From: an uncultured bacterium
Lineage (GTDB): Bacteria > Patescibacteriota > Minisyncoccia > Phycocordibacterales > Phycocordibacteraceae
Direction of reading: 5' to 3'
NCBI GenBank assembly: GCA_937879955.1
Contig: CALFMK010000001.1
Span: 5,461-69,460, forward strand
DNA: 64,000 nt
Positions 5,864 to 64,000 of this stretch are shown here, one piece after another. Each line of letters opens with the position of its first letter. Position 1 is the stretch's first letter. The position numbers were made by a program, and so were the translations under genes. The notes under the pieces are model-generated. The model worked only from the letters and a program-made list of their open reading frames with translations, was not told the DNA's origin and ran no database searches.

Positions 5864-8257
5864 ATGAAACACGTGGGAAGGCTTCTGGTACTGCTTTTTG
5901 GTGCTTTTATCTTTCCGGGGATGGTCTCTGCAGCCACCTACTACGTTGATGCGACTCTCGGTAATAATTCGAATAACGGCACTGCCGCTAGTACCTCGTG
6001 GCAGACGCTCGCCAAAGTAAACGGCACTACATTCTTGGCTGGCGATAATATCCTCTTTAAGAAGGGAGAGACGTTTACTGGTGTGCTCGTAGCAGGCCAG
6101 AGTGGCACTAATGGGAATCCAATCACGTACGGCTCATATGGGGAGGGTGCGCGCCCAATTATTAATGCCGCTGGAAATAATCATGGATTCGACATCCGGA
6201 CAGGTAAGTCTTATATCAATGTAGCTGGCCTCGAAGTTCGAAACGCGACCTTGAACCAGTTTCTTCTGTTCGCTAATAGTTCGAATATATCGCACGTGTC
6301 CATCCAGGACTCGATAGCTGTAGGGGGAACGAGCGGATTCAATTTACAGGGACCAGGAACGTTTCTAGACATAACAATAAGTAGCAGTACCGCAAGCGGG
6401 TACGCGGGAGGTTCTGCGGTTGGTGTTCGCCTTGGTTCAGGAACCACTTTTGATGGAATTACTCTCGATGGAGTATCGGCGGCTTCTGGAAGTGGGTATC
6501 AGGGCTTCAGTACTGGATCGGGAACCTATTCAAATATTTCGATACTGAACTCATCGTTCACTGGGCATCCATCAAACGGTATTGCGTTTCTGTCTGCAAC
6601 GACGACTAACGTGGTCATTAGGGATACTGTAGCGAGCTTGAATGGAGGAAGTGGGATTTATTTCTTTGGTGTGAAGAGTGGAGTTGAGATTGATAACGTA
6701 ACAGCAAACTCAAATACCCAAAACGGAATAGGATTTGAAGCTGGTGCCATGAATCACATATCAATCGAAGACTCCGAGTTCAACAATAATGGACTTAATG
6801 GAATCGCACTTCTCGGAAGCGGAACCGGAACGTCAACAATCGTTTCTCGGTCGATTGCGTCTGGTAATGATAATGACGGTTTTAATATCTCTGGAAACTG
6901 GCAGAATGTCGTATTCGAGGAAGCGATCGCAAGTGATAATGGTGTAGATGGTATTGGCTCGAACGGAGACGGCTTCAGCTTTCACAACTCGAGCACCGGT
7001 GTAATTAGGAATAGCCAGGCACATAATAATTGGAAGTCAGCCGTAACAAACGTGAATACATCGAGCACGACGGTATATAACAACCTCTTTTCGCATGACA
7101 CCAACGGAACGAATGCCCTCATCACATTCCTAGACAGCGGAAGCCATGCTGCTTACAACAATGTGCTCTATAGCCCTGCACAGGTGGGGTATGGATTGGT
7201 CGCGAATGGTACAACGACACTCATAGCGAGGAATAATATTATTCAAGGTTTTCAGTACGGCGTATCGAAGGGGACGAATGCCTTCTTGGTAGAAGATTAC
7301 AATGACGTTTATGGAGCCAGTACGGCCTCCTACATTGGGCTTACTGGAGGTGTACATTCTATCTCTGTGAATCCAAAGTTTGTCGACGCTGAGGATGATG
7401 ATTTCCGACTACTTCAGTCCTCTCTTGCTATAAATGCAGGTACTACGACGCCCTATGTAACCGATTACCTCGGAAATCCACGCGTCGGCATTCCGGATAT
7501 GGGTGCATATGAGTATCAGGGAATACCTGATATAACAGCACCTTCTATCTACATAATTGCACCAGTGGATCCGGCTACGATATCTGGAACTGTAATTATT
7601 ACCGCATCAGCGACGGATGCTATCGGCGTAGAAGAAGTCGAATTTTTTCTAGATGGAGTATCGCTCGGGGATGATGCATCTGATCCTTATTCATTTTCAT
7701 GGAACTCATCTGCAGTTCCCGATGGCGTATACTCACTTCTCGCAGTTGCACATGATGCTGAAGGGAATTATGCCACCTCCTCTCCTGTCTCCGTCACGGT
7801 CTCGAATGTAATTCAGGAAGCGAGCCATCGCTCTGGTAAGTCCGGTCAGAGTGTCGTACGCACTATCTCTCCGCTCGCAGATTCTGTATTAAATGAAGGA
7901 GAAGCAAAGATATCATCAATAAATCGGCTCATACTCGATAATCGCGCACTTTTTATGCTTGCGCAGGAAAAGGGAATAGTAGTTCCTGAATTCATACTCA
8001 ATATGCTCGATCTCCCTTCGGGCTCGACCATTTCGATATTCTTTAATCGTCCTCTTGCGCTTGGAGCAACTGGCCCAGATGTCACTGCACTCCAGCAGAT
8101 TCTTAAGGATAAGGGCTTCTATGTTTATCAGGAGATAACCGGCTACTACGGACAAGCCACACTACAAGCTGTTGCTGACTACCAGAAGTCACTTGGGCTC
8201 GAATCTCTCGGGTATGTAGGTCCAGCAACAAGGGAAGCCTTGAATGCTGGGATTTGA
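5864..8257 (+). CDS. secreted parallel beta-helix repeat protein with Ig-like module and C-terminal peptidoglycan-binding domain
   Basis: Signal peptide MKHVGRLLVLLFGAFIFPGMVSA. About 400 aa of G/N/S/T-rich repeats (..NGI.F..) typical of right-handed beta-helices. Ig-like segment VEEVEFFLDGVSLGDDASDPYSFSWNSSAVPDGVYSLLAVAHDAEGN. PG_binding_1-like tail GATGPDVTALQQILKDKGFY..GYYGQATLQAVADYQKSLGL. Lies in the low-GC island. Confidence 0.8.
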   Translation: MKHVGRLLVLLFGAFIFPGMVSAATYYVDATLGNNSNNGTAASTSWQTLAKVNGTTFLAGDNILFKKGETFTGVLVAGQSGTNGNPITYGSYGEGARPIINAAGNNHGFDIRTGKSYINVAGLEVRNATLNQFLLFANSSNISHVSIQDSIAVGGTSGFNLQGPGTFLDITISSSTASGYAGGSAVGVRLGSGTTFDGITLDGVSAASGSGYQGFSTGSGTYSNISILNSSFTGHPSNGIAFLSATTTNVVIRDTVASLNGGSGIYFFGVKSGVEIDNVTANSNTQNGIGFEAGAMNHISIEDSEFNNNGLNGIALLGSGTGTSTIVSRSIASGNDNDGFNISGNWQNVVFEEAIASDNGVDGIGSNGDGFSFHNSSTGVIRNSQAHNNWKSAVTNVNTSSTTVYNNLFSHDTNGTNALITFLDSGSHAAYNNVLYSPAQVGYGLVANGTTTLIARNNIIQGFQYGVSKGTNAFLVEDYNDVYGASTASYIGLTGGVHSISVNPKFVDAEDDDFRLLQSSLAINAGTTTPYVTDYLGNPRVGIPDMGAYEYQGIPDITAPSIYIIAPVDPATISGTVIITASATDAIGVEEVEFFLDGVSLGDDASDPYSFSWNSSAVPDGVYSLLAVAHDAEGNYATSSPVSVTVSNVIQEASHRSGKSGQSVVRTISPLADSVLNEGEAKISSINRLILDNRALFMLAQEKGIVVPEFILNMLDLPSGSTISIFFNRPLALGATGPDVTALQQILKDKGFYVYQEITGYYGQATLQAVADYQKSLGLESLGYVGPATREALNAGI

Positions 8258-8284
8258 ATTCTTCTAGAGGACGGCGATAATAAA

Positions 8285-8500
8285 CTATATATAACGTTTA
8301 ATTATCTCAACACTGCCCAAGGTCAGTATGTCTCTACCGACCACTCCGTTCTTACGGGTACTAATTACTTTAATAGCTTCTCGTTCGAGAAAGTACATTA
8401 CCGCAGTGTTCAGAATTAAATTCCTATCCCTCTCCTCTGTAACTAGTAAATCAATCGTTTCAAGGACATCCTCTGGAATATCAAGATTAATTTTAGACAC
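8285..8500 (-). CDS. ribbon-helix-helix (CopG-like) small DNA-binding protein
   Basis: KINLDIPEDVLETIDLLVTEERDRNLILNTAVMYFLERE follows the RHH strand-helix-helix pattern. GTG start, no obvious SD, 23 nt after the upstream ORF. Low GC. Confidence 0.55.
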   Translation of the reverse strand: MSKINLDIPEDVLETIDLLVTEERDRNLILNTAVMYFLEREAIKVISTRKNGVVGRDILTLGSVEIIKRYI

Positions 8501-8523
8501 TGTAAATTCTAAAAATTAAAGCT

Positions 8524-9003
8524 CTAGCTGAACTTCAGCATTTTCGTTTCTAAATTTTCCAGCAATATCTGATAACGCGCATCGAGAGGATTTAACTTGT
8601 AACGTATTTGACGTATAACGATTTTGTATAATTTCCCAACTTGCCCTCGCGTTTCTATACGAATACGGAAGGCTGCTGTCATTCCTGTTGGTATCTTGCA
8701 GTAAACTATCGTGCCTAGGGCAACTTGAGTTATGTTCTCTCCTCGGCATGAAATATCAGTTTTTAATATTGAACTCTGAGCCGTTCCTTCAATCTGATAT
8801 ACAAAACCGGTTGGCTTCTTGCCCGAGGCAACCGAAAGAGGAACGTATAGATCTTTCCGAGGAGCAGTTATGTTAATGATAAATATAAAATTCCCGATTA
8901 CGCGGTCAGGTCCATTAGGAATTCGCGTTCTCCTAAGATTCTCTTCAGTGTCTTTAATATCGACCAAGACATCTTTCTCCGGTGGAATGATTGGTTTATC
9001 CAT
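8524..9003 (-). CDS. hypothetical protein (low-GC island)
   Basis: 159-aa ORF co-oriented with and immediately upstream of the RHH gene. I recognise no motif. Confidence 0.5.
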   Translation of the reverse strand: MDKPIIPPEKDVLVDIKDTEENLRRTRIPNGPDRVIGNFIFIINITAPRKDLYVPLSVASGKKPTGFVYQIEGTAQSSILKTDISCRGENITQVALGTIVYCKIPTGMTAAFRIRIETRGQVGKLYKIVIRQIRYKLNPLDARYQILLENLETKMLKFS

Positions 9004-9116
9004 ATAATCAGATAGCTCTTTGTATAAGATCAGTATGGGTTTAGGAATATGAAAAATATCTCAAAATTGCATAAAGTAATTATGGAGACAGTGGCAGAAA
9101 GCTGATCTAGTCACTT

Positions 9117-9148
9117 CGAAAAGAAGCACCGGACCACATGTCCGGTGC
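9117..9148 (-). terminator. intrinsic terminator (minus strand) after the 9182-9484 gene
   Basis: GCACCGGAC-ATGTG-GTCCGGTGC on the minus strand, followed by TTCTTTTCG. Confidence 0.6.
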
Positions 9149-9181
9149 TAACTAATATGAATCCTATAAGAAAGAGGCAAA

Positions 9182-9484
9182 TTACTTCTTACCCCAGCGC
9201 CATGATGGCTCTTCGCCAAAGCGTAGGCAGATCCGGTAGAGGGAATAGGAAAGAAGGGCGATAACGCCTGTGAACTCTAAGACTCCGAAAATGATGTCCC
9301 GGGCCCCTACATGGCTCTCGACCGCGGCACCGACCCATCCGAAGAATATAAGGAAGGCGAAGGTGAAGAGGAGGGCATAGAAGACCGTCACGGCCCATCC
9401 CTGCCATGAGACAGGGAACCAGCCCCACCCGAATTCCTTCGCCCGGAACCACAGCTTCCGGGCCTTCCTTTTGTGTTCGCTCAT
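9182..9484 (-). CDS. small integral membrane protein
   Basis: 100 aa with two or three hydrophobic helices (WAVTVFYALLFTFAFLIFFGWVGAAV, IIFGVLEFTGVIALLSYSLY). Confidence 0.6.
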   Translation of the reverse strand: MSEHKRKARKLWFRAKEFGWGWFPVSWQGWAVTVFYALLFTFAFLIFFGWVGAAVESHVGARDIIFGVLEFTGVIALLSYSLYRICLRFGEEPSWRWGKK

Positions 9485-11622: not shown

Positions 11623-11970
11623 CTATTCCGTCGTTTGCTGGATGTCCTGCGTCTGTTCGTCGAGCATGTCGATGAGTGCGGCGTAATAGGTCGGACGCGT
11701 AGCAACCTTCTCTTCCGTAGCTGCGTTAATCGCGCGTATCGCGTCCTCGAGCGTGAATCCGGCAATAGCGGCCCGCGTCTCTTCCTTGCGTGCATCGCTC
11801 CAGAGGGACATATCGGCGCCGGGCCCGTACGTCTCGCCGACCATTCGTCGCACGCTCGCTTCCTTCGCCATGTCCAGAGCGCCGGTCTCTGCGGCCGGAC
11901 TCTCGGAGAGGTTGTCATTCGCTGCGGCATTCGGGAACTGCAGGATCTTTCCGAACGGTCTTCCTTCCAT
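11623..11970 (-). CDS. hypothetical protein
   Basis: Track ORF 11623-12060 trimmed to the internal ATG (MEGRPFGKILQFPN...) because the upstream part overlaps the VanY gene. TAGGAT lies 10 nt upstream. Confidence 0.5.
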   Translation of the reverse strand: MEGRPFGKILQFPNAAANDNLSESPAAETGALDMAKEASVRRMVGETYGPGADMSLWSDARKEETRAAIAGFTLEDAIRAINAATEEKVATRPTYYAALIDMLDEQTQDIQQTTE

Positions 11971-11992
11971 GGGTATGTAAATCCTAGTAGTG

Positions 11993-12874
11993 CTAATCGA
12001 ACAGCTCCGCAAGGTACTCGTCGATGGTGCGCTGGTCGAGGTCGTAGAACCACGCGTCATCGTCGTGCAGCCGCTCGGCGAGGTCCCTGCCTACGAAGCG
12101 CCAGTGCCACGGCTCGTACTGGTAGTACGTGTTGCCCTTGGGGTAGGAGAGCACAAAGCCGTACTTCCAGGCGTTCTTCGTGAGCCATTCGTACTCCTCG
12201 GTCTTGTCGAAGCCAGCGAACGTTCCGCCCACCGTCGTCGTCGTGAAGTCGACGGCGGTGCCGAGCTGGTGCTCGGAGTAGCCCTGATCTGCGGAGAACG
12301 AATTGGCTCCGGACCCGTACTTCACGGTGTAGCCGGACTTGAGCGACGCCTGGTTCGCGAACGAGCGGTACGAGGACGCCACCTTGAGGTCGAGGCCGTC
12401 CTCCTTCGCGTCGTCGAGCAGGTCCTCGAGGAACGGGTCTACGTCGGCATGTATCTCGTACGCGCGTCCCTCCTGGAACGCGTACGCGGCATCGATAACG
12501 GTCAGTCTCGACGGGACGTAGTTCTCGTTCAGGAAGTAGACCTTCGAGTACTTCGCGAGCAGCTCGGGATCGGTCTTCGCGAGCTTCTCGAGGGTCCCTA
12601 CGGTCCCCGAGAGGTCCTTGAGCTGGCTCTCGAACTTACCGTTCTTCTGCTGCTCGCGCCGGAGCTCCCCGGCGAGGCTGATGCTCTCCTCGGTCTTCTC
12701 GCCGAGCTTTCCGGTAAGCTCGGCCTCCTTCGCCTCGGCCGTCGCACGGGCCTCGGTAAGCGCGCTCTTCGCCGCCGCCAGCTCTGACGAGAGGGAATAG
12801 AGGCCGTACATCGCGAACCCTGCGAGCGCGAGGACGACGAGGCCGATGAGTGCGAGAAGGGTGCTGCGGGACAT
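11993..12874 (-). CDS. D-alanyl-D-alanine carboxypeptidase, VanY/M15B family, membrane-anchored with coiled coil
   Basis: N-terminal TM helix, a coiled-coil segment, then M15B motifs SSYRSFANQ, SEHQLGTAVD and EPWHWRF. Confidence 0.85.
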   Translation of the reverse strand: MSRSTLLALIGLVVLALAGFAMYGLYSLSSELAAAKSALTEARATAEAKEAELTGKLGEKTEESISLAGELRREQQKNGKFESQLKDLSGTVGTLEKLAKTDPELLAKYSKVYFLNENYVPSRLTVIDAAYAFQEGRAYEIHADVDPFLEDLLDDAKEDGLDLKVASSYRSFANQASLKSGYTVKYGSGANSFSADQGYSEHQLGTAVDFTTTTVGGTFAGFDKTEEYEWLTKNAWKYGFVLSYPKGNTYYQYEPWHWRFVGRDLAERLHDDDAWFYDLDQRTIDEYLAELFD

Positions 12875-12897
12875 ATGGCTATTCTCTCACAGGTCCC

Positions 12898-14979
12898 CTA
12901 TGCGCGCTCGATAGTAGCGAGAATCTCCTCGATCTCAGCGAGCCCCGCCGGCTTCGTGAGATGGTGGTCGAACCCGGCCTTCCGGGCCTTCTGTATGTCG
13001 GATTCCTGGCCGTAGCCGGTGAGTGCGACGAGCGTCGCGGCGAACCCATCAGCGCGGAGCGCCGTCGCGACCTCGTAGCCCTCCATGTCCGGCAGGCCGA
13101 TGTCGAGCAGGATCACGTCAGGACGGAACGCGGGCGCGCGGGCGATAGCCTCCTCGCCGGTATATGCGGTTTCGGTACGGTTCCCGCGGAGCGTGAGGAG
13201 CTTCGCGAGCGCGTCGGCCGCGGCGCGGTTGTCGTCCACGACGAGGATGCGGAACCCGTCACGCGCCTTTGGCGCTGCTACGGCCCGTGCCCGCACCCCG
13301 ACGGCTCCCTCCTGCGGGAGCGGGATGCGGACGGTGAACCGGCTCCCGTGTCCGGGCCCGTCGCTCTCGGCCTCGATCGTGCCGTCGTGCATCTCCACCA
13401 GGTTCTTGGTAAGCGAGAGGCCGATGCCGAGACCTGCGTGCATCTTGCCGGGCTGCTCGATCTGGAAGAACGGTTCGAAGACGTGCGCAAGGAGCGCGGC
13501 GTCCATGCCGATGCCGGTGTCCGTCACCGTGACGACGGCCTCGGTCCCGTCCGTGCGTGCCACGAGCTCGATACGGCCTCCGGGCTCGGTGTACTTCGCC
13601 GCGTTGTTGAGGAGGTTCACGAACACCTGCTCGAGACGCACGGGATCGGCCTCGAGGCGGATCGCCTCGTCCGGCATGTCGATCGAGAGCTCGTGCTTGA
13701 GGGACGCCATGAGCGGCGCCACGGTACGCTGGCTCCTTGCGAGCACGGTCTGGAGGTCGATGTGCTCCTTCTGGAGGGAGAGCTTCTCGCGGGTGATGCG
13801 CGAGATGTCGAGCAGGTCGTCGAGGAGATGCCGCATGGTCTTCAGGTGGTCGGTCATGCCTTCGGCGAGCTCGCTCGAGCGAGCGGCATCCGGCCGCTCG
13901 AGCTTCATGATCTCGAGCGAGGACATGAGCGGGGCGAGCGGGTTGCGCAGCTCGTGCGCGAGGGTGGCGATGAAGCGGCTCTTCGCCTCGTCCTCACGGC
14001 GGATCCGCTCCACGGCGTCCTCGAGCCTGCGCACGTTGTCGCGCAGGACGTTCGCGGTGTCCTTGCGCTCCTCCGCGATGGAGACGAGCACGAGGAATAT
14101 GAGGGAGAGCACGATCACGAATATCTCGGTCTGCAGGAGGTCGTATCCGAGCGTCCCTGTACCGGACGCGAGGCTGAGGAACGCGGTGCCGCCGAGCGCG
14201 AGCGCGGCGTTCAGGAAGAGCGCGAGCGTCATGAAGCGCGGGCCGATGCGCAGCGCGATCCAGAGGAACGGGATGAGGATAAGGTATACGAGCGGCACCT
14301 GCGCGATCTCGCGGTATGGGGTCCAGTACAGGAGGAGGCCGGTCCCGACGACGGCCGCTATCGCGACCCAGGCCTCGACGAGCTCGCCCTTCGTGCGCTG
14401 GAACCTGAAGCGCGGCAGCCACTTGATGAGGAGCGGCGTCACGACGAGCATGGAGAGGATGTGCCCGATCCACCACGGGATGAAGGTACCCATGAGGCCG
14501 CGGGGCATGGCGCGCTCGGCCAGGGTGAAGGTGAGGGTTCCGAGCGCCGGGATGAGGATGGTGACGAAGAGCGCGACGAACACGAACATGAGGGTGTCGG
14601 GAGCCTTCGAGAAGGTGTTGCGGTATCCGAGCTTCCGGAGGAGCCAGGTGCCCACGCTTGCCTGTATGGCGTTCGCCGCCGCAAGCCCGAGCGCCACGAA
14701 CAGCACGCTCCCGTTCAGGAGCTGGTGCGCGAGAGCTGCCAGGAATACCGCAGGCCAGAGCGCGATGCCGCCGAGGAGGAGTCCGCCGAGCGCGATGCCG
14801 GATGCCGGCCAGATGAGGGCCGGGGCGGTCGGGACGGAGGAATAGATATGCGAGAAGACCTGGGCGCAGAACAGGTACGCGCAGAACAGCAGCGCCATGT
14901 AGAGGAGCGACCGTCCGGAATAGGGGAAGCGAGGCATAGACGGGTGGATGGCGTTCTCCCTAGGATACATTCTTTTCAT
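12898..14979 (-). CDS. hybrid sensor histidine kinase (multi-TM MASE1-like sensor, HisKA, HATPase, C-terminal receiver)
   Basis: About 300 aa of TM helices. H-box LAHELRNPLAPL. ATP-lid boxes NLLNNAAKYT, DTGIGM and GLGIGL. Receiver ILVVDDN..ILLDIGLPDMEG..LTKP. Start could be an internal Met (14970 or 14937). Confidence 0.85.
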   Translation of the reverse strand: MKRMYPRENAIHPSMPRFPYSGRSLLYMALLFCAYLFCAQVFSHIYSSVPTAPALIWPASGIALGGLLLGGIALWPAVFLAALAHQLLNGSVLFVALGLAAANAIQASVGTWLLRKLGYRNTFSKAPDTLMFVFVALFVTILIPALGTLTFTLAERAMPRGLMGTFIPWWIGHILSMLVVTPLLIKWLPRFRFQRTKGELVEAWVAIAAVVGTGLLLYWTPYREIAQVPLVYLILIPFLWIALRIGPRFMTLALFLNAALALGGTAFLSLASGTGTLGYDLLQTEIFVIVLSLIFLVLVSIAEERKDTANVLRDNVRRLEDAVERIRREDEAKSRFIATLAHELRNPLAPLMSSLEIMKLERPDAARSSELAEGMTDHLKTMRHLLDDLLDISRITREKLSLQKEHIDLQTVLARSQRTVAPLMASLKHELSIDMPDEAIRLEADPVRLEQVFVNLLNNAAKYTEPGGRIELVARTDGTEAVVTVTDTGIGMDAALLAHVFEPFFQIEQPGKMHAGLGIGLSLTKNLVEMHDGTIEAESDGPGHGSRFTVRIPLPQEGAVGVRARAVAAPKARDGFRILVVDDNRAAADALAKLLTLRGNRTETAYTGEEAIARAPAFRPDVILLDIGLPDMEGYEVATALRADGFAATLVALTGYGQESDIQKARKAGFDHHLTKPAGLAEIEEILATIERA

Positions 14980-14996
14980 GAAGCCTACATGAAAGG
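14977..14996. promoter_or_regulatory. second copy of the CATGAAG direct-repeat box (CATGAAGCCTACATGAAAGG)
   Basis: 17/20 identity and the same orientation as 1051-1070. Lies at the 5' end of the hybrid kinase gene, in the divergent region shared with the SET gene. Confidence 0.4.
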
Positions 14997-15044
14997 CCCG
15001 CGCCTTGCTACGGAGCCGTGCTTCGCCGTACTATGGGCTCCACT

Positions 15045-15455
15045 ATGACAGCAAAAGGAAAGTACGTACCCGGCGAGTGGACGCTCGCCGTGAAGCGGTC
15101 GAGCGCCGGCCTCGGCCTGTTCGCGGGCGAGCGCATCCCGAAGGGCGCCTGCGTCATCGAGTATGTCGGACGCACGGTATCGAAGGAGGAGAGCGAGACG
15201 AGCAAGAGCAAGTACCTCTTCGAGATCTCGAAGAACAAGACCATCGACGGGAAGCCGAAGATAAACAAGGCGGGGTACATCAACCATGCCTGCAATCCGA
15301 ACTGCGAGACGGAGATAGCGAAAGGCCGCATCTTCGTGATGGCGATCAAGGACATAAAGCCCGGAGACGAACTCACCTACGACTACGGGAAGGAGTACTG
15401 CCTCGAGCACTGCGTCCCGTGCCGCTGCAGCGCGAAGAAGCACCTGTACGGATAG
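15045..15455 (+). CDS. SET-domain protein (putative lysine methyltransferase)
   Basis: GLGLFAGERIPKGACVIEYVG, NHACNPNC, ELTYDY and a Cys-rich tail CLEHCVPCRC. Start set to the ATG at 15045, 10 nt after TACTAT. The track start at 15018 is in the same frame. Confidence 0.8.
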   Translation: MTAKGKYVPGEWTLAVKRSSAGLGLFAGERIPKGACVIEYVGRTVSKEESETSKSKYLFEISKNKTIDGKPKINKAGYINHACNPNCETEIAKGRIFVMAIKDIKPGDELTYDYGKEYCLEHCVPCRCSAKKHLYG

Positions 15456-15468
15456 GTGCCGCGCATGA

Positions 15469-15500
15469 GGAACCCGCGCTTCGCGTGAAGCGCGGGTTCC
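15469..15500 (+). terminator. perfect 14-bp hairpin after the SET gene
   Basis: GGAACCCGCGCTTC-GCGT-GAAGCGCGGGTTCC. No clear U-tract. Confidence 0.45.
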
Positions 15501-15516
15501 GTGCTAGCGTACTCCC

Positions 15517-15741
15517 ATGTACGTGAAAGCGAGAGTACAGGCCGGTGCGAAGGCCGAGTCCCTCCGGCAGGTCTCTGATACGCATTTCGCGATAGCGGTC
15601 AGGGAGAAGGCGGAGCGGAACGAGGCGAACCTGCGGGTGATCGCGCTTGTCGCCGGCCACTTCGGCGTTCCTGCGGGGAAGGTGCGGATCGTGAACGGGC
15701 ATCGAAGCCCGTCGAAGCTCCTCTCCGTCGATACGGACTAG
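15517..15741 (+). CDS. DUF167/YggU-family protein
   Basis: 74 aa. KARVQAGAKAESL...AERNEANLRVIALVAGHFGVPAGKVRIVNGHRSPSK matches the YggU pattern as I remember it. Confidence 0.75.
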   Translation: MYVKARVQAGAKAESLRQVSDTHFAIAVREKAERNEANLRVIALVAGHFGVPAGKVRIVNGHRSPSKLLSVDTD

Positions 15742-16346
15742 CGGATGCGGACGTTCTTCGCGATCGCGCGGACGGTCTCCTCGTCTGCCTCGTCCGCCGA
15801 GAGGTTGAGCGGCGCGCCGATAACGAGCATCTTCGTTGCGGAGGCGCCCGTCGAGAGGACGAACGCGTAGTACGGGCCCTTCTCGACCTCCGTGACGCTT
15901 CCGGTGGCGAGGTCCTTGAGTTCGCCCTTCAGGTAGAGCTCGTAGCCGCTCGCGCCCATGTCCGAGACGAAGGGCGACAGCCGGGTCACGCCCGTGCAGG
16001 AGAAGGAGGCGTCAGGACCGTCTGCGGCGCAGAGGTTCGCGAGCTCGCGCACGGCTGCGTCCGTGAAGGACTCGCCCTCCTTTCCTTCGATGACCTGCAC
16101 GCGCACGTCGGCGACGCTATCGATGCCGCCTTCGATGAGGTGTCCGATCGACGCGATGTCATCGGTGTACTCGAGGATGTCGAGGTCTGCCGGATAGGCG
16201 AGGGAGTATCCGTGATCCGCGTTCTCGTACGCGGTCTCAGGCACCTCCTCCGGCGCAGGCGCGTTCGCCTTCAGGTTGAAGATGAAGCCGCCGAGCGCGA
16301 TGACGAATACGATGCAGATGGCGACGGAGAGGATGCGGTTCAGCAT
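15738..16346 (-). CDS. membrane-anchored/secreted hypothetical protein
   Basis: N-terminal hydrophobic anchor MLNRILSVAICIVFVIALGGFIF. GC-rich codon third positions. Confidence 0.6.
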   Translation of the reverse strand: MLNRILSVAICIVFVIALGGFIFNLKANAPAPEEVPETAYENADHGYSLAYPADLDILEYTDDIASIGHLIEGGIDSVADVRVQVIEGKEGESFTDAAVRELANLCAADGPDASFSCTGVTRLSPFVSDMGASGYELYLKGELKDLATGSVTEVEKGPYYAFVLSTGASATKMLVIGAPLNLSADEADEETVRAIAKNVRIR

Positions 16347-16391
16347 GGATAGGGATTTAGTGCTATGCCGCGAGTATACCGCGGGGCTGTA

Positions 16392-16793
16392 TCAGCGTGC
16401 CACGACGGCGTAGCAGAGCTGCTTGTGCCCGCAGCTTGCCGTCGGCATGATAGAGCCGCTCCTCACGGCATCAGCGAGCTCCGTGCGCGTCGCAGGGATC
16501 GTGAGAGGGATCTGGCACGTGCCATCGTCCGTGCTGGACCAAGTGCCGTTCGCGAGGATGCAGTCGTACTCAGTCTTCGTTTCGCGGCTGAACTCGTAGT
16601 GTCCGGTACCGGACACCTGATCTCCCGTAACATCGAGGGTGCCGGCATAGGTCCGGCCTCCGCCTGAGCTCGTGAGGTCCGCGCTCAGGGTCATGACGAA
16701 CGAGCGGGGAAGGCCGTCGCCCCTGAGGACGACCGCGGCGAGCACGCCGAGCGCGAGGCAGGCGAGGACGATGAGCGGAATGAGTCTCTTCAT
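16392..16793 (-). CDS. secreted hypothetical protein
   Basis: Signal/anchor MKRLIPLIVLACLALGVLAAVVL. 133 aa. Confidence 0.6.
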   Translation of the reverse strand: MKRLIPLIVLACLALGVLAAVVLRGDGLPRSFVMTLSADLTSSGGGRTYAGTLDVTGDQVSGTGHYEFSRETKTEYDCILANGTWSSTDDGTCQIPLTIPATRTELADAVRSGSIMPTASCGHKQLCYAVVAR

Positions 16794-16822
16794 GGCGACA
16801 ATGGTACCGCGTATACGAAGAA

Positions 16823-16845
16823 AGCGCCCTCTGGGGGGCGCTTTT
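16823..16845. terminator. bidirectional hairpin terminator
   Basis: AGCGCCC-TCTGGG-GGGCGCT flanked by an A-run and a T-run. Confidence 0.55.
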
Positions 16846-16849
16846 CCTG

Positions 16850-16963
16850 CTAGCGGACCTTCCGGGCGTCCTTCGCTGCCTGCTTGATAGCGAGACGCTT
16901 CTTGGTCTTCGGAGGACTCTTCCTCGGTTTCTTCGGGCTCACCCCGTGACTGTTTGCTGCCAT
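16850..16963 (-). CDS. possible 37-aa highly basic small protein (below the ORF-track length cutoff)
   Basis: ATG..TAG translates to MAANSHGVSPKKPRKSPPKTKKRLAIKQAAKDARKVR. Has its own TAGTAT box upstream and the 16823-16845 hairpin downstream. No homolog recognised. Confidence 0.3.
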   Translation of the reverse strand: MAANSHGVSPKKPRKSPPKTKKRLAIKQAAKDARKVR

Positions 16964-17033
16964 AGATATGATTTAGGTGTGCTCACACGATACTACGAAA
17001 TAAGGGAAAAAGCTCGGTGGGGGATATGAAAAA

Positions 17034-17056
17034 GGCGAGGACGTTCTGTCCTCGCC
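17034..17056 (-). terminator. intrinsic terminator (minus strand) after 17068-17451
   Basis: GGCGAGGAC-AGAAC-GTCCTCGCC followed by TTTTTC on the minus strand. Confidence 0.6.
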
Positions 17057-17067
17057 CTCTGCCAGCG

Positions 17068-17451
17068 TCAGGTGCTGGGATACTGAACCACGATGCGGTC
17101 GGCGTAGATGTCGATGACGGTCGCCGCGCAGACATTCACGCCCATCTTGGTGAGCACCTTGCCGCCGTTGAACTCGACCTTGATGTCGTACCGGCAGGCG
17201 CCGGAGCCGTCGTCGATATTGGCGATCTTCTGCCGGCCAGCGAACAGGACCGTACCGCCGAGCATGTCTTCCTGCCAGCTGTCCACGCCGACCCGCGAGG
17301 CATAGAACCTCCAGACCGAGACCTGCGCGTGGTTATGCAGCGCCACCTCACGGTCCCTGGCGCCGTCGGATTGGGCCAGGGCGGGCTGGGCGGACAAGGC
17401 AACGGCCGCCAGGATGGCGGCAGCGGATACGAATCGTTGGAACGCTCGCAT
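17068..17451 (-). CDS. secreted hypothetical protein
   Basis: Signal peptide MRAFQRFVSAAAILAAVALSAQPALAQ. Confidence 0.6.
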   Translation of the reverse strand: MRAFQRFVSAAAILAAVALSAQPALAQSDGARDREVALHNHAQVSVWRFYASRVGVDSWQEDMLGGTVLFAGRQKIANIDDGSGACRYDIKVEFNGGKVLTKMGVNVCAATVIDIYADRIVVQYPST

Positions 17452-17533
17452 GATATTCCCTCCTTGGAATATGAAAGATCAATGAAACAACCGTGGGAAT
17501 GTAACACACGTTATAGTGCCTGTCATCAGAAAA

Positions 17534-17557
17534 CCGCCGGGTCCAGGGACCCGGCGG
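17534..17557 (-). terminator. intrinsic terminator (minus strand) after tdk
   Basis: CCGCCGGGTCC-CTG-GACCCGGCGG followed by TTTTCTG on the minus strand. Confidence 0.6.
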
Positions 17558-17564
17558 GGAAGTT

Positions 17565-18164
17565 CTAGAGGGATGGCGGCACGAAGCATCGGCGGCAGCG
17601 CGGCTCGTACTTGTCCGCGTCGCCGATGACGACCGTCGACGTGTCCTTGCTTAGTCGTTGCGAGAACTGTGCTTCGTCACCGCATTCGCAGATAGCCGTG
17701 ACCTTCAGTATGCGGTCCGCGATGGCGCAGAGCCCGGGCATGCCGTTGAACGGCTTCCCGTCCCAGGTCATGTCGAGGCCGGCGATGTAGGCATGCAGGT
17801 CGTCATTCCGTCGTAGGTAGAGGAGCGTTTCGATAGCGCGCCCGAACCAGCCGAGCTGGTCCCCGTCGAGCGGGAAGAACTGGGCTTCGTCGACGATGAG
17901 GACGTCGAAGTCCTCATTGGCGAAGAGCGCGAGAAGTTCTCGCTCGGTCCTGATCTCGTGCGCCGGGAGGAGTCCCGTGCGCGCGGTGGTGCCGTTCTCC
18001 TGGAGCCTTCGCGGCGCGATGCCGTTAGCGATGCGCGTGTCGGTGACCGGCTTCACGGCGAGCACCCTCTTCTTCGCGATGCGCGCGCGTTCCGCCCGCA
18101 GGAGCAGTACCCCGGACTTCCCGGAGAACATGGGCCCCACGATAACCTCGAGCGTTGCTGGCAT
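17565..18164 (-). CDS. tdk: thymidine kinase
   Basis: P-loop GPMFSGKS, DEAQFF and a C-terminal zinc ribbon CECG...CRRC. SD AAGGAGGG upstream. Confidence 0.9.
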   Translation of the reverse strand: MPATLEVIVGPMFSGKSGVLLLRAERARIAKKRVLAVKPVTDTRIANGIAPRRLQENGTTARTGLLPAHEIRTERELLALFANEDFDVLIVDEAQFFPLDGDQLGWFGRAIETLLYLRRNDDLHAYIAGLDMTWDGKPFNGMPGLCAIADRILKVTAICECGDEAQFSQRLSKDTSTVVIGDADKYEPRCRRCFVPPSL

Positions 18165-18227
18165 GGAGCCCTCCTTGTTGATGAACGTCTGGAGGCAATG
18201 ATACAGCTCGCGCCTGACAAAGGAAAA

Positions 18228-18248
18228 GACAGGCCGCGAGGGCCTGTC
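18228..18248 (-). terminator. intrinsic terminator (minus strand) after the VOC-family gene
   Basis: GACAGGCC-CTCGC-GGCCTGTC followed by TTTTCCTTT on the minus strand. Confidence 0.6.
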
Positions 18249-61694: not shown

Positions 61695-61856
61695 ATGGGA
61701 CTCGACTATAGCCAGAAGCGCCTCGTCTCCGCGCCGCTCCATCACCGGGGGCGCGAGAGCGCGCACACCAAGCGCCTTAAGCTCTACGCGTTCCTCACGG
61801 GCCTCATGAGCACCTGCATATCGCTCGCGCAGCTGGTTATCACGGCGATGAAATAG
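61695..61856 (+). CDS. possible 53-aa tail-anchored small protein (below the ORF-track cutoff)
   Basis: MGLDYSQKRLVSAPLHHRGRESAHTKRLKLYAFLTGLMSTCISLAQLVITAMK. Codon third positions are almost all G/C. Paralogous C-terminus to the next ORF. Confidence 0.35.
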   Translation: MGLDYSQKRLVSAPLHHRGRESAHTKRLKLYAFLTGLMSTCISLAQLVITAMK

Positions 61857-61886
61857 GCGTGCTATCCTAGTACCCATACATTCCTT

Positions 61887-62006
61887 ATGGCACGCCGAGC
61901 AAAGAAACATTCCAAGGGACCGGGGCTCGAGGTCTACGCGTTCTGGACCGGGTTCGCGAGCACTATCATCAGCCTCCTGCACGTGCTCATCGTGGCGAGC
62001 AAGTAG
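61887..62006 (+). CDS. possible 39-aa tail-anchored small protein
   Basis: MARRAKKHSKGPGLEVYAFWTGFASTIISLLHVLIVASK. Shares the (L/V)YAF.TG..ST.ISL...(L/V)I.A.K pattern with the previous ORF. Confidence 0.35.
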   Translation: MARRAKKHSKGPGLEVYAFWTGFASTIISLLHVLIVASK

Positions 62007-62010
62007 CGCC

Positions 62011-62130
62011 ATGGCAGAGAATAAGCCTGCACCATCGTTCCGTGACCCGAAGCGCGGCATGAGCGCGTTCTCGAGCAAGGGCGTGAAGAAGCCTGTACGC
62101 GCGTCGTATTTCGGAAAGAAGGCGCGATAG
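62011..62130 (+). CDS. possible 39-aa basic small protein
   Basis: MAENKPAPSFRDPKRGMSAFSSKGVKKPVRASYFGKKAR. Followed 8 nt later by a strong terminator. Confidence 0.3.
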   Translation: MAENKPAPSFRDPKRGMSAFSSKGVKKPVRASYFGKKAR

Positions 62131-62138
62131 GGAAGGGA

Positions 62139-62166
62139 AAAGCCGGAGTAGGGATGCTCCGGCTTT
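62139..62166 (+). terminator. intrinsic terminator closing the LOG / tiny-ORF transcription unit
   Basis: AAAGCCGGAG-TAGGGATG-CTCCGGCTTT followed by T. Confidence 0.65.
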
Positions 62167-62182
62167 TACGTAGGTGGATGCG

Positions 62183-62368
62183 TCATCGGGTGCGGCCGCT
62201 GTAGGTGAGCACGCCGGCGATTATGATCGCGACGGTGACAGTCCGTCCGGCGATCTGTACGACAGGGTCCGGATGGAGATTCGCCGCGAGCGAGCAGAGC
62301 AGCATCACGAGAGCGACGGTGTACAGAATGATCGAGATACCCCTACTTTCAGGACTATGACGCGACAT
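62183..62368 (-). CDS. small membrane protein, hypothetical
   Basis: 61 aa with two hydrophobic helices (ISIILYTVALVMLLCSLAA, VTVAIIIAGVLTY). Confidence 0.4.
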   Translation of the reverse strand: MSRHSPESRGISIILYTVALVMLLCSLAANLHPDPVVQIAGRTVTVAIIIAGVLTYSGRTR

Positions 62369-62554
62369 GGCACGGACCTTTCCTAAAGAGCGATACCGAG
62401 CTCTTCCGCTAGTATGCGCTCCGCCGGGGATTTGTTAAGCAGAAAGGCACTCGACTTTATCTTTTCTTTATCTCTCGTACATACACTGAGCCGGGTAGTT
62501 CTTTCATCCTGCAAGGTCGCCCGTAGCGACTGCGCATGAATACCCGCATAGGGG

Positions 62555-62586
62555 AGAGCGAACCGTCCGTCAGGGCGGTTCGCTCT
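62555..62586 (+). terminator. 13-bp hairpin in the 62.4-62.6 kb ORF-free region
   Basis: AGAGCGAACCGTC-CGTCAG-GGCGGTTCGCTCT followed by TT. Confidence 0.45.
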
Positions 62587-62648
62587 TTAGTGGTGTAATA
62601 TTTTAGCCCTAAACACGGTACGCGCACGGTGCTATAGTCGAGGTATCT

Positions 62649-63014
62649 ATGCCTTGGCCACGAGTGGGGGACTGGTTGGAGAGGATCAGTAAATCGAACG
62701 CGCTCTATCCGCTCCTCATAGCGCTATGCCTCTCCGTCGCGTTCGCCGGTACGGTCATAGCATTCGTACCGAACGTTCTCATCCAGGTCATCGTCTGTAT
62801 ACCAGTGCTGATGATCGTATTCCAGATCGTCCGGAGCTTCGAGTACTTCTCCAAGAACAACCCGGACATGCTCCGGACCGAGACGCATGTGATCCAGCAG
62901 CGCGTCCTCGAGATGATGGGGGACGAGTCCGGCGTCGTGCACGCGACTGCGGCCGACCTGGTAGCCATAACGAATCCTGCGAATACCCAGGATAGAATCG
63001 AAAACCATGGCTAA
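62649..63014 (+). CDS. membrane protein, hypothetical
   Basis: 121 aa with two TM helices (LYPLLIALCLSVAFAGTVIAFV, IQVIVCIPVLMIVFQIV). TATAGT box upstream. Confidence 0.5.
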   Translation: MPWPRVGDWLERISKSNALYPLLIALCLSVAFAGTVIAFVPNVLIQVIVCIPVLMIVFQIVRSFEYFSKNNPDMLRTETHVIQQRVLEMMGDESGVVHATAADLVAITNPANTQDRIENHG

Positions 63015-63294
63015 CATCTATCTTATCGCCGTAAAGAATGATGATTCCTTCAATGTTAAGGAATTCCATAAATTTGTTAAGGAAAAACTCTATCCTGAGC
63101 ATGTGGGCGGTTGGTGGCATTACGTTTCTGGACCAACCTATCTCGTTAAGTCGGAAACACTTGATGCTAAGGGAATATCCGAAATCATCACCCAGTTCAC
63201 TGGCAAGCAGAGTCATCTTGTTACCAAGATCGATCTAGAAGATATCGAAGGAATGTTGCCGGCTCGCGCATGGGACTGGCTCGGACTCTACTAA
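63007..63294 (+). CDS. hypothetical protein (low-GC island)
   Basis: 95 aa. Overlaps the previous gene by 8 nt. AT-rich codon usage. Confidence 0.5.
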   Translation: MANIYLIAVKNDDSFNVKEFHKFVKEKLYPEHVGGWWHYVSGPTYLVKSETLDAKGISEIITQFTGKQSHLVTKIDLEDIEGMLPARAWDWLGLY

Positions 63295-63512
63295 TGGAGC
63301 ACATCACACTTCAAGAGTATGAAGATACTGATGGAACGAGGATGGAGCTCGGTATCCAGTATGACGAAGCTACCTACCAGTTCATCGTTTCCGGAACGCC
63401 AATTAATGGCAATGGGGCGTATGAGGCAGGGAAGACGCCCATTTTCGCATCCTTCCCGACCCTCGAAGAAGCAAGGATGTTCGTAGAAAAGAGTTTCACT
63501 AAGATCTCCTAG
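63294..63512 (+). CDS. hypothetical protein (low-GC island)
   Basis: TAATG stop/start overlap with the previous gene. MEHITLQEYEDTDG... (72 aa). The track start at 63270 is in the same frame. Confidence 0.45.
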   Translation: MEHITLQEYEDTDGTRMELGIQYDEATYQFIVSGTPINGNGAYEAGKTPIFASFPTLEEARMFVEKSFTKIS

Positions 63513-63571
63513 GAATCTTCGGTTTATTTTTTCTCCAGGATTCCTTTATCCGGGGCTGGTAGGGTTCGGAT

Positions 63572-64000
63572 ATGGCAATGGTAGAAGAAAATCTGATACT
63601 TTCCCTCTTGAAGAAAGAGTTTCCGAAGGCGCCCGAACAGGTATTGAGACAATGGCTTGCTCCAGCTGTTAAGAAGGACGGTTGGCCACCGACCGGACTT
63701 CATTGGATCGGTGTATTGGGGAAAAGGGATCTGGATTTCTGGAAAAAGAAGGAATGGTCCCTTAAGGACGTTAACCTCGAAGAAGCTTCCTGGGATTACG
63801 ATACTAGGTACGCGGCAGAAAAGGTGCTCGAAGGGTTTGTTGCATCTCAAGAATCTGAAGTCCTCTTCTCTGATTCTCATGAGAAGCAGAAGGTCATACG
63901 AGCACTTAAGCACCTTTCAGTCGAAGGAAGCTTCTTCGAGCCGATAACCGCATTTCTCGTAGAAAACGAATCTGGTGGCTACTCGCTCGTAGACGGATTC
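63572..64000 (+). CDS. hypothetical protein, N-terminal fragment (runs off window end); possibly ParB/Srx-like
   Basis: Open frame from the ATG at 63572 to the window end (143 codons), so it is absent from the track. It ends ...GGYSLVDGF, reminiscent of the ..LIDG(H/F)HR motif of ParB-like nuclease domains, but the motif is cut by the window edge. Confidence 0.4.
   Translation, partial: MAMVEENLILSLLKKEFPKAPEQVLRQWLAPAVKKDGWPPTGLHWIGVLGKRDLDFWKKKEWSLKDVNLEEASWDYDTRYAAEKVLEGFVASQESEVLFSDSHEKQKVIRALKHLSVEGSFFEPITAFLVENESGGYSLVDGF

Follow-up and report, generated by a model that had tools for sequence, protein, structure and literature searches.

Domains of the ParB/sulfiredoxin (Srx) fold are present in several defence systems, including GmrSD, DndB, the BREX PglZ-associated proteins and SspE, and we know of no agreed catalytic signature for the label "ParB-like nuclease". 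The GxxR motif (Box II), at the beginning of the helix that follows the central strand, is the phosphate-binding P motif of the ParB fold, the members of which bind ATP, CTP or GTP; of the 28 proteins of this fold that were purified in one survey, only 11 showed detectable NTP binding (PMC12704722). The roles of this fold have recently been widened beyond chromosome segregation (PMC12704722), and the protein denoted P4 below adds an unannotated family to it.

The genomes of Patescibacteria are tiny and streamlined, and hence where and how foreign genes enter them is of some interest. Here we describe the right end of a window (the whole stretch of DNA that was analysed, 64,000 nucleotides) from a high-GC chromosome of this group (Candidatus Paceibacterota). 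The region is probably the left end of a strain-specific accessory islet of mosaic structure, located at a hotspot of lineage-wide turnover, and P4, encoded at its visible edge, is likely to be an NTP-binding protein. The islet is an ordinary one that adds a single member to the ParB/Srx family, and the locus neither opens nor settles a major question.

Gene content and composition of the region

The features of the region are as follows.

62,141-62,168, plus strand: hairpin followed by a T-run, 3' of the third conserved tiny gene; AGCCGGAG-tagggatg-CTCCGGCTTTT
62,183-62,368, minus strand: ORF for a hydrophobic protein of 61 aa (ORF list)
62,411-62,590, no strand assigned: noncoding stretch, 76% identical to L002 and L003
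62,610-62,638, plus strand: promoter-like site TAAACA-17-TG-TATAGT, 5' of P1 (predicted by consensus scan)
62,649-63,014, plus strand: P1, 121 aa, two predicted transmembrane segments and a soluble tail of ~55 aa (ORF list)
63,007-63,294, plus strand: P2, 95 aa, soluble; 8-nt overlap with P1
63,294-63,512, plus strand: P3, 72 aa; 1-nt overlap with P2 (TAATG)
63,572-64,000, plus strand: P4, first 143 of 191 codons; separated from P3 by 59 nt; truncated by the window end

The four co-oriented ORFs with overlaps of 8 and 1 nt noticed in a first-pass annotation of the window are real, as judged from the ORF list. The composition of the DNA that carries them departs from that of the host chromosome. 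The GC content is 0.498 over positions 62,400-64,000 and 0.469 over 62,950-64,000, compared with 0.638 in the remainder of the window (the first island left out). Among 400-bp windows taken along the 64 kb (mean GC 0.624, sd 0.059), values below 0.52 occur in only three runs, one of which is a single window, and the drop at the window end is not due to chance. The earlier annotation had put this DNA at 35-45% GC from 62.4 kb onward: the drop itself is real, but the sharp fall, from 0.64 to 0.47, begins at ~62,950, and the range was overstated because just 9 of the 26 60-nt lines at the window end have values of 0.45 or less (the lines range from 0.35 to 0.65 and average 0.50). The k-mer composition deviates as well, with a tetranucleotide distance of z = +2.6 for the final 1.4 kb. 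The GC content at third codon positions (GC3) is 0.83-0.91 in the neighbouring core genes L9, exonuclease and LOG, compared with 0.48 in P2, 0.59 in P3 and 0.50 in P4; P1 is intermediate (0.76) and therefore may be older or of other origin. In all three respects, GC, GC3 and tetranucleotides, the region shows the atypical composition of a genomic island or a hotspot of horizontal gene transfer (HGT), and a horizontal origin of its genes appears probable.

The syntenic site in related genomes

A search with the LOG protein retrieved 80 loci, the closest of which belong to metagenome-assembled genomes of Paceibacterota/Patescibacteria with 80-85% amino acid identity. More than 20 loci retain the three tiny genes that follow LOG, and the relatives are collinear up to that point. 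The hairpin and T-run at 62,141-62,168 are conserved in L002 and L003, and blastn homology to L004-L015 and L032 ends at 62,129-62,146; this hairpin is the last sequence common to the species-level relatives and thus marks the left edge of a segment that varies across the lineage. The variable segment spans ~0.8-5.2 kb in 9 of the 11 relatives examined and exceeds 9 kb in L032 and L008; beyond it lies a shared block (G2, G8, G9, G7, G5, G0 and further genes), the first genes of which are LexA-like and MsrA-like. Several of the variable segments are low in GC, as in L032 (0.40-0.49 versus 0.60-0.64).

No tblastn or phmmer match to P1-P4 was found in any relative except the contig L001, which is discussed below. 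None of the related genomes compared carries P1-P4 at the syntenic position, the content of which varies in all of them; therefore the region is accessory and not a conserved piece of the core genome, which the first-pass annotation had named among the findings that would refute its island, and the site qualifies as a hotspot. The gene content of this one position is exchanged throughout the lineage, with differences even between the closest strains. The hotspot lies between the block comprising the exonuclease, LOG and the three tiny genes and the LexA-like/MsrA-like block. What is visible in the window is the left end of the islet, the body and right end of which lie beyond position 64,000; an integrase, an att site or partner genes may be located there, shortly after the window end.

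The two closest contigs (L002 and L003, 82% identical) are collinear with the window up to position 62,578, and both end ~600 nt later. In the alignment to these relatives, the segment 62,183-62,368 has diverged whereas the flanks on both sides are conserved. The 61-aa ORF in this segment has no relative by tblastn or phmmer in any locus, and because an unrelated ORF of 66 aa occupies the same place in the closest relatives, it is uncertain whether the 61-aa ORF is a real gene. The noncoding stretch that follows (62,411-62,590) is conserved in these two contigs only. It harbors a predicted minus-strand promoter-like site (62,438-62,411) and a hairpin (62,555-62,586, inverted repeat I3), and its RNA fold on the plus strand has z = -3.7. 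Comparison of this stretch with Rfam gave no match at the gathering threshold or at E<=10, and a known RNA gene as the integration target at the junction was accordingly rejected. The strain-specific DNA starts directly 3' of the noncoding stretch.

A two-gene module with its own predicted promoter

The hydrophobic stretches of P1 span residues ~18-40 and 43-61; the protein belongs to no Pfam or PADLOC family, and a metagenome scan with it gave no match. P2 is predicted to adopt a ferredoxin-like beta-alpha-beta-beta-alpha-beta fold, which is a generic one. P2 and P3 are orphans in family searches, and P3 has no family, PDB or locus match; an alternative start of P3 at an in-frame ATG (63,270) would give a protein of 80 aa.

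A second copy of P1-P2 is carried by L001, a 4-kb contig of low GC throughout (0.47). The sequence that it has in common with the window covers exactly 62,590-63,293, that is, the promoter, P1 and P2, at 84% nucleotide identity; the homology stops exactly at the P2 stop codon, after which other genes follow. The element TAAACA...TGCTATAGTCGAG is also kept in L001, though the DNA further upstream differs, and on this comparison the predicted promoter appears to be part of the mobile P1-P2 module. The two copies of P1 are 97% identical at the amino acid and 87% at the nucleotide level, with a dN/dS of 0.036, and the corresponding value for P2 is 0.022; both genes are under strong purifying selection.

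The four genes had been viewed as one tightly coupled unit. This does not hold, given that P1-P2 travel without P3-P4 on L001, that a 59-nt gap precedes P4 and that no neighbour is conserved across the 52 loci of P4 relatives. The visible part of the islet appears to be composite, with two or more pieces acquired independently of each other from donors of lower GC content. The first would be the self-contained P1-P2 module, in which a two-TM membrane protein is translationally coupled to a ferredoxin-like protein under a promoter of their own and to which the orphan P3 would have been appended at this locus; the second would be P4, a stand-alone and separately transcribed gene.

P4, a predicted ParB/Srx-fold protein of an undescribed family

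The window cuts P4 at ...ENESGGYSLVDGF. The full-length protein (P0001, 191 aa) was obtained from a protein collection and is 100% identical to P4 over the 143 aa encoded in the window; the gene would end 147 nt past the window, at ~64,147. After the cut, P0001 continues with HRLSAWQLQRK..., and therefore the DG(F)HR motif of ParB/sulfiredoxin-like domains, which had been suspected from the truncated ORF, is present. It corresponds to the GxxR motif, D141-G142-F-H144-R145 in P0001; all of 160 members of the P4 family have the G and the R, and D and H show 97% conservation. When aligned by the family profile, the motif coincides with DGHHR/DGVHR in SerK and SbnI. Besides GxxR, the conserved polar residues include only D141 and H144, along with N95 and R107 in most members, and four semi-conserved positions of the P4 in the window carry residues other than those of the family consensus (N95S, R107K, Y114H and P122F).

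In the predicted structure of P0001, residues ~59-187, including DGFHR, adopt the alpha/beta fold of the ParB/Srx superfamily, and residues 1-58 form a helical, Trp-rich N-terminal extension with a GWPP motif; 7p9k and 6jiv are among the structure matches, at low Z. P0001 has no ParB match in Pfam (PF02195 ParB_N or its clan, gathering score), and NCBIfam yielded nothing for the family. When 60 members were compared with Pfam, the only hits were sub-threshold (GmrSD_N for 6, DUF1015 for 5 and ParB_N for 2; best E 0.001-0.03), and sequence-level support for P0001 as a ParB/Srx protein amounts to E ~0.01. The assignment of P4 to a previously undescribed family of this fold is a prediction that rests mainly on the modelled structure, which is a confident one, and one short motif. 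The name "ParB-like nuclease", used in the first-pass annotation, is a domain name kept for historical reasons only; the residues conserved in the family belong to the nucleotide-phosphate (GxxR) motif. Nor is P4 a partition ParB: no HTH was detected by Pfam in P0001, which does not combine an HTH with a C-terminal dimerisation domain, there is no GERR motif, no parA is encoded upstream of P4 in the window or beside its relatives in 52 loci, and tblastn found no P4 in the plasmids of PLSDB.

The P4 family is rare, with 221 cluster representatives among 1.84 billion. A scan of genome contigs with P4 detected no relative, and a family-specific DNA pattern matched 98 metagenome stretches; 80 loci were taken, 36 of which were discarded as chance matches without a family member, and 46 verified members were recovered from metagenomes. 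The relatives occur alone in variable regions. Neighbour clustering of 52 loci recovered only duplicates of the same locus and two serine-recombinase neighbours, with no conserved operon partner; the latter two are large recombinases that directly adjoin P4 relatives (L090 and L126). In L089, a tyrosine recombinase is encoded 7 kb away from the P4 relative. Here and in L158/L164, the relatives reside in integron-like cassettes with attC-like sites: the spacers in L089 start with ..CTAAC.. and end with ..GTTAGGC/GTTAGCC, and a 61-nt GCCTAAC...GTTAGGC element lies 3' of the P4 relative in L158/L164. A regex scan of positions 62,300-64,000 found no RYYYAAC...GTTRRRY attC-like pair, and an integron cassette within the window was thus rejected.

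Judging from the invariant GxxR, P4 most likely binds a nucleoside triphosphate. This compact candidate for nucleotide binding could then function as a small nucleotide-dependent switch or a phosphotransferase-type enzyme, with the Trp-rich helical part serving as a specificity or partner-binding surface. A bolder scenario can be sketched in which the family represents a branch of the ParB-CTPase fold with a new function, spreads as single-gene cargo of integron cassettes, serine-recombinase elements and hotspots and acts as a free-standing switch or enzyme of defence or counter-defence in conflicts with mobile elements, P1-P2 being a separate, new membrane-acting module; we regard this scenario as speculative and rather unlikely.

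Origin of the islet

Given an accessory islet at a turnover hotspot, the DNA was most likely inserted by homologous recombination within the flanking core genes or by a recombinase encoded beyond the window. Among the alternatives, the one that survives best, although it appears unlikely, is that the visible genes form the edge of a discrete integrative element (a prophage or an integrative island), with the recombinase and the right att site beyond the window and P1-P4 as cargo or "moron" genes. The abrupt composition step, the junction directly after a conserved, hairpin-terminated noncoding element, the recombinases encoded next to or near P4 relatives, and the almost full-length match of P1 to the phage family phrog_27377 (unknown function; E 2.6e-9) are all compatible with such an element. 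However, the stretch 62,170-64,000 contains no integrase or recombinase gene and no att direct repeats of note, and the junction does not lie at a tRNA or tmRNA gene, the closest tRNA being located at a distance of 22 kb. Furthermore, P1-P2 and P3-P4 are separable, and in the relatives the site is occupied by many small, differing insertions and not by a single element. With regard to a prophage specifically, tblastn of P1 and P0001 against 50,697 phage records found no match, and searches of IMG/VR with P1, with the alignment of P4 and with its motif pattern were also negative; the PHROG match of P1 is the sole phage link, so a prophage is not supported.

Less probable still is that P1-P2, perhaps with P3 and with or without P4, constitute a small anti-phage or toxin-antitoxin-like module in a defence island, with a membrane effector and a cytosolic partner. 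Small translationally coupled genes that have a promoter of their own, move as a unit and evolve under strong purifying selection would fit this reading, as would the occurrence of ParB/Srx-fold domains in defence systems. So would the context on L001, where the gene directly 3' of P1-P2 encodes a DUF3800 protein with a match to the candidate system PDC-M04A of PADLOC (E 1.6e-20), and a 201-aa protein contains an RxxxxH (HEPN-like) motif and a faint match to CARF_HEPN (E 0.009). This, however, is guilt by association from a single 4-kb contig; P2 and P3 are orphans, the fold of P2 is generic, P4 relatives lack a conserved partner, and neither P1, P2, P3 and the partial P4 nor the full-length P0001 have a match in PADLOC-DB 2.0, on which ground a known anti-phage defence system was rejected. 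A mobile element or defence island, as proposed in the first-pass annotation, is at most suggested by context elsewhere, namely the PDC-M04A gene beside P1-P2 on L001 and the serine recombinases or attC-like sites beside P4 relatives.

An assembly or binning artefact, in which DNA of another organism was joined to a Paceibacterota contig as a low-GC tail, is highly improbable: the source contig is metagenome-assembled, the join adjoins a hairpin and the sole other copy of P1-P2 is on a short, uniformly low-GC contig, but independent assemblies (L032, L006 and L009) show low-GC insertions at the same site followed again by host-like sequence, GC decreases gradually from 62,300 onward, the GC3 of P1 is intermediate, and a homologue of one 37-aa L001 gene is located in the same hotspot of L008, which ties the content of L001 to the lineage.

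Comparison with known systems

Among stand-alone ParB/Srx-fold proteins, namely sulfiredoxin, the serine kinases SerK and SbnI, Pyrococcus 1vk1 and PadC, P4 finds relatives that are only 12-20% identical to it. Unlike these proteins, P4 is predicted to possess an additional N-terminal helical part of ~58 residues, with the conserved pattern LPNFP...W...GWPP...W...W and without a clear structural match, and it lacks the catalytic Cys of sulfiredoxin. With the partition ParB of ParABS systems, Noc and KorB, P4 shares the predicted fold of the N-terminal domain and the position of the phosphate motif; however, at 191 aa in total it lacks the HTH/parS-binding and C-terminal dimerisation domains of partition ParB and has DGFHR in place of its arginine patch, GERRxR.

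The relatives of P4 resemble integron cassettes in that they are found in co-oriented arrays of unrelated small genes, whereas P1, P2 and P3, in contrast to promoterless cassettes, overlap one another and have a predicted promoter of their own. The closest parallel to the locus as a whole is with HGT hotspots and genomic islets between core genes, in which, as here, the content differs at one syntenic position, the composition is atypical, small genes of unknown function occur together with candidate defence genes, and an integrase is often missing. The difference from typical HGT hotspots lies in the host, which in this case is a patescibacterium with a genome of ~0.6 Mb.

Composition and gene content of the right end of the window

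The GC content of the window averages ~0.63 and dips twice, at 5.7-9.4 kb and over the last ~1.3 kb. At a finer scale, it is 0.50-0.58 over 62,300-62,950 and 0.40-0.49 from 62,950 to the window end; the interval 62,400-64,000 has a GC content of 0.498 and 62,950-64,000 of 0.469, against 0.638 elsewhere. The drop reported in the first-pass annotation is real, although the 35-45% given there was too low (9 of 26 sixty-nucleotide lines are at or below 0.45). Third codon positions show the contrast best: GC3 lies at 0.83-0.91 for the conserved upstream genes (L9, exonuclease, LOG), at 0.73-0.87 for the three tiny genes that come after LOG, and at 0.76, 0.48, 0.59 and 0.50 for the terminal ORFs P1, P2, P3 and P4, respectively. 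These four co-oriented ORFs are all present as originally described. The other low-GC island (5864-9484), where GC falls as low as 0.375, carries genes unrelated to those of the P1-P4 region: it encodes a 797-aa beta-helix/Big_7/peptidoglycan-binding surface protein and two further ORFs, of 159 and 100 aa, that match no family.

Features of the right end of the window
61695-62130: three tiny genes (53, 39 and 39 aa) directly after LOG, conserved in >20 Paceibacterota loci
62183-62368, minus strand: 61-aa hydrophobic ORF
62411-62590: noncoding stretch
62610-62638, plus strand: promoter-like TAAACA-17-TG-TATAGT ahead of P1
62649-63014, plus strand: P1
63007-63294, plus strand: P2, overlapping P1 by 8 nt
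63294-63512, plus strand: P3, start in TAATG
63572 to past the window end, plus strand: P4, last residues in the window ...GGYSLVDGF

A variable site next to a conserved block

The LOG protein retrieves 80 loci, the closest of which belong to Candidatus Paceibacterota/Patescibacteria MAGs. Two contigs, L002 and L003 (~82% nucleotide identity), show collinearity with the window from L9 and L27 over the exonuclease and LOG to the three tiny genes; species-level relatives lose nucleotide homology to the window at 62,129-62,146. Tiny genes 1 and 2 are paralogous, each product having a hydrophobic segment near its C terminus, and tiny gene 3 encodes a very basic product. At the position of the 61-aa minus-strand ORF, L002 and L003 carry an unrelated 66-aa hydrophobic ORF between conserved flanks; the 61-aa product may be a small membrane protein that evolves fast or has been swapped. 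Past this diverged ORF collinearity resumes at 62,411-62,578, in the noncoding stretch (76% identity), which folds better than shuffled sequences on the plus strand (z -3.7), closes with a hairpin (62555-62586) in which the relatives have compensatory changes, has no Rfam match, and may represent a small RNA or regulatory region. Strain-specific DNA begins immediately beyond it: L002 and L003 differ from the window after 62,578, and both contigs end ~600 nt later.

P1-P4 are found in none of the >20 loci that keep the three tiny genes. Clustering of the ORFs of 11 relatives delineates a shared right-hand gene block, the first genes of which we take, by their motifs, to be LexA-like (GDSM) and MsrA-like (GCFWG); no gene of this block lies within the window. 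The block starts from 0.8 kb (L007, L013) to ~5 kb (L006, L010, L015) after the tiny genes and is not reached within >9 kb in L032 and L008. The intervening DNA is unrelated among genomes and often of low GC. In L032 (a 622-kb contig), an island at 11836-18240 (GC 0.40-0.49 for 6.5 kb) encodes HNH, GTP cyclohydrolase II, TauD dioxygenase, LD-carboxypeptidase, MazG-like pyrophosphatase and SAM hydroxide adenosyltransferase-like proteins, and is possibly a nucleotide-modification cluster. Variable DNA of this sort, flanked by two core blocks, marks the site as a gene-turnover hotspot.

P1-P2 as a probably separable module

A single further contig carries P1 and P2: L001, a 4-kb Logan contig (GC 0.47) that has exactly 62,590-63,293 in common with the window, that is, the promoter-like site, P1 and P2, at 84% nucleotide identity; the sequences differ both upstream and downstream of this segment. 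The protein identity (P1, 97%; P2, 88%) and the low dN/dS values (0.036 and 0.022) indicate that P1 and P2 are real, constrained genes that move together. The tightly coupled unit of four genes that had been proposed is not demonstrated: L001 has only P1-P2, followed by different sequence with a DUF3800 protein matching the PADLOC candidate defence family PDC-M04A (E 1.6e-20), then small membrane or secreted proteins. The DUF3800/PDC-M04A protein (1136-1900) and a 201-aa protein with an R-x4-H (HEPN-like) motif (3231-3836) are both encoded on this contig, and its 37-aa gene has a homologue inside the same hotspot of L008. P1 matches phrog_27377 (function unknown; E 2.6e-9); phage records and IMG/VR gave no match for it. 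P2 is an orphan with no relatives besides the L001 copy; its predicted model, built on two sequences only, is a generic ferredoxin-like fold (pLDDT 86). P3 has no relative anywhere among the families, structures and loci searched.

P4, a small ParB/Srx-fold protein

A word-indexed search returned a sole protein, P0001 (191 aa), identical to P4 across the 143 residues in the window and encoded on a 591,393-bp contig (NCBI, ENA, Logan). Its sequence past the cut (...LVDGFHRLSAWQLQRK..., gene end ~147 nt beyond the window) contains the DG(H/F)HR motif that had been guessed from the truncated ORF. HMMER, run exhaustively against 1.84 billion cluster representatives, recovered 221 relatives at E<=1e-3, of which 55 pass E<=1e-10; almost all are 160-210 aa long, with alignments spanning residues ~10-155. 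An alignment of 160 members shows no variation at W62, G142 and R145, 97% conservation at D141 and H144, and 93-98% at W28, G37-W38-P39-P40, W45, W57 and W184. No model in Pfam, NCBIfam or PADLOC reaches threshold. The sub-threshold matches, namely GmrSD_N, DUF1015 and ParB_N in Pfam, 'ParB-like partition protein' PHROGs (12 of 60 members), and SbnI, SerK, 1vk1 (E ~0.01) and ParB (E 1) in the PDB, are mutually consistent, and the PDB matches all align on ...PI-x-L-x(5-7)-Y-x-I-x-DG-x-HR-x-x-A. In the predicted structure, residues ~59-187 adopt the ParB/Srx fold, which supports the initial 'ParB-like' call at the fold level, and residues 1-58 form a four-helix Trp-rich extension with no clear match; P4 has neither an HTH nor a dimerisation domain. 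Given this fold and the GxxR motif, the phosphate-binding P motif of ParB-fold proteins, members of which bind ATP, CTP or GTP (PMC12704722), we read P4 as a small putative nucleotide-binding protein.

A DNA pattern specific to the family (WPP-x4-8-W-x11-W-x4-W-x72-82-DGxHR) occurs in 98 stretches of JGI metagenomes and in none of 2.9 million IMG/VR contigs; among 80 fetched loci the family HMM confirmed 46, the remainder being chance matches. Clustering of neighbours across 52 loci revealed no conserved partner. Three settings recur. One is a co-oriented array of unrelated small genes. Another is seen in L085, where the P4-family gene lies amid toxin-antitoxin, glyoxalase and AHSA1 genes near smpB, and the third in L090 (796-2745) and L126 (1533-3500), where it is directly beside homologous large serine recombinases (~430-443 aa), in different relative orientations. 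An integron-like co-oriented cassette array in L089 (199-12451) includes SNase, HEPN_RiboL-PSP, HNH and glyoxalase genes along with the P4-family gene, with a tyrosine recombinase and a type I R-M methylase downstream; its spacers (57-108 nt) have attC-like ends (..CTAAC.. / ..GTTAGGC). A 61-nt GCCTAAC...GTTAGGC element follows the P4-family gene in L158 and L164.

Origin of the P1-P4 region

The P1-P4 region is probably an accessory islet specific to the strain, located at a hotspot shared across the lineage and built from pieces that are separable and derive from lower-GC sources; these would be the P1-P2 module plus an added P3, and the stand-alone ParB/Srx-fold gene P4. An unlikely rival is that P1-P4 form one end of a discrete integrative element, for which the recombinases near P4 relatives could be cited; over the part of the region inside the window there are no significant repeats, and the junction has no tRNA, tmRNA or known RNA. 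The interval 62,300-64,000 holds no attC-like pair. Less likely still is a small defence or toxin-antitoxin module, for which the DUF3800 neighbour of P1-P2 in L001 could be cited, set against the lack of a PADLOC match for P1-P4 and of a conserved partner for P4 relatives. An assembly chimera is very improbable. The 'nuclease' and 'mobile element/defence island' labels of the first-pass annotation are not demonstrated; its observation is otherwise largely correct.

In a published survey, the ParB fold frequently comes joined to lineage-specific domains, and very short forms exist as genuine single-domain proteins (PMC12704722). The P4 family is a new, unannotated member family within this known superfamily, of modest novelty, and the genomic location of P1-P4 is of an ordinary kind.
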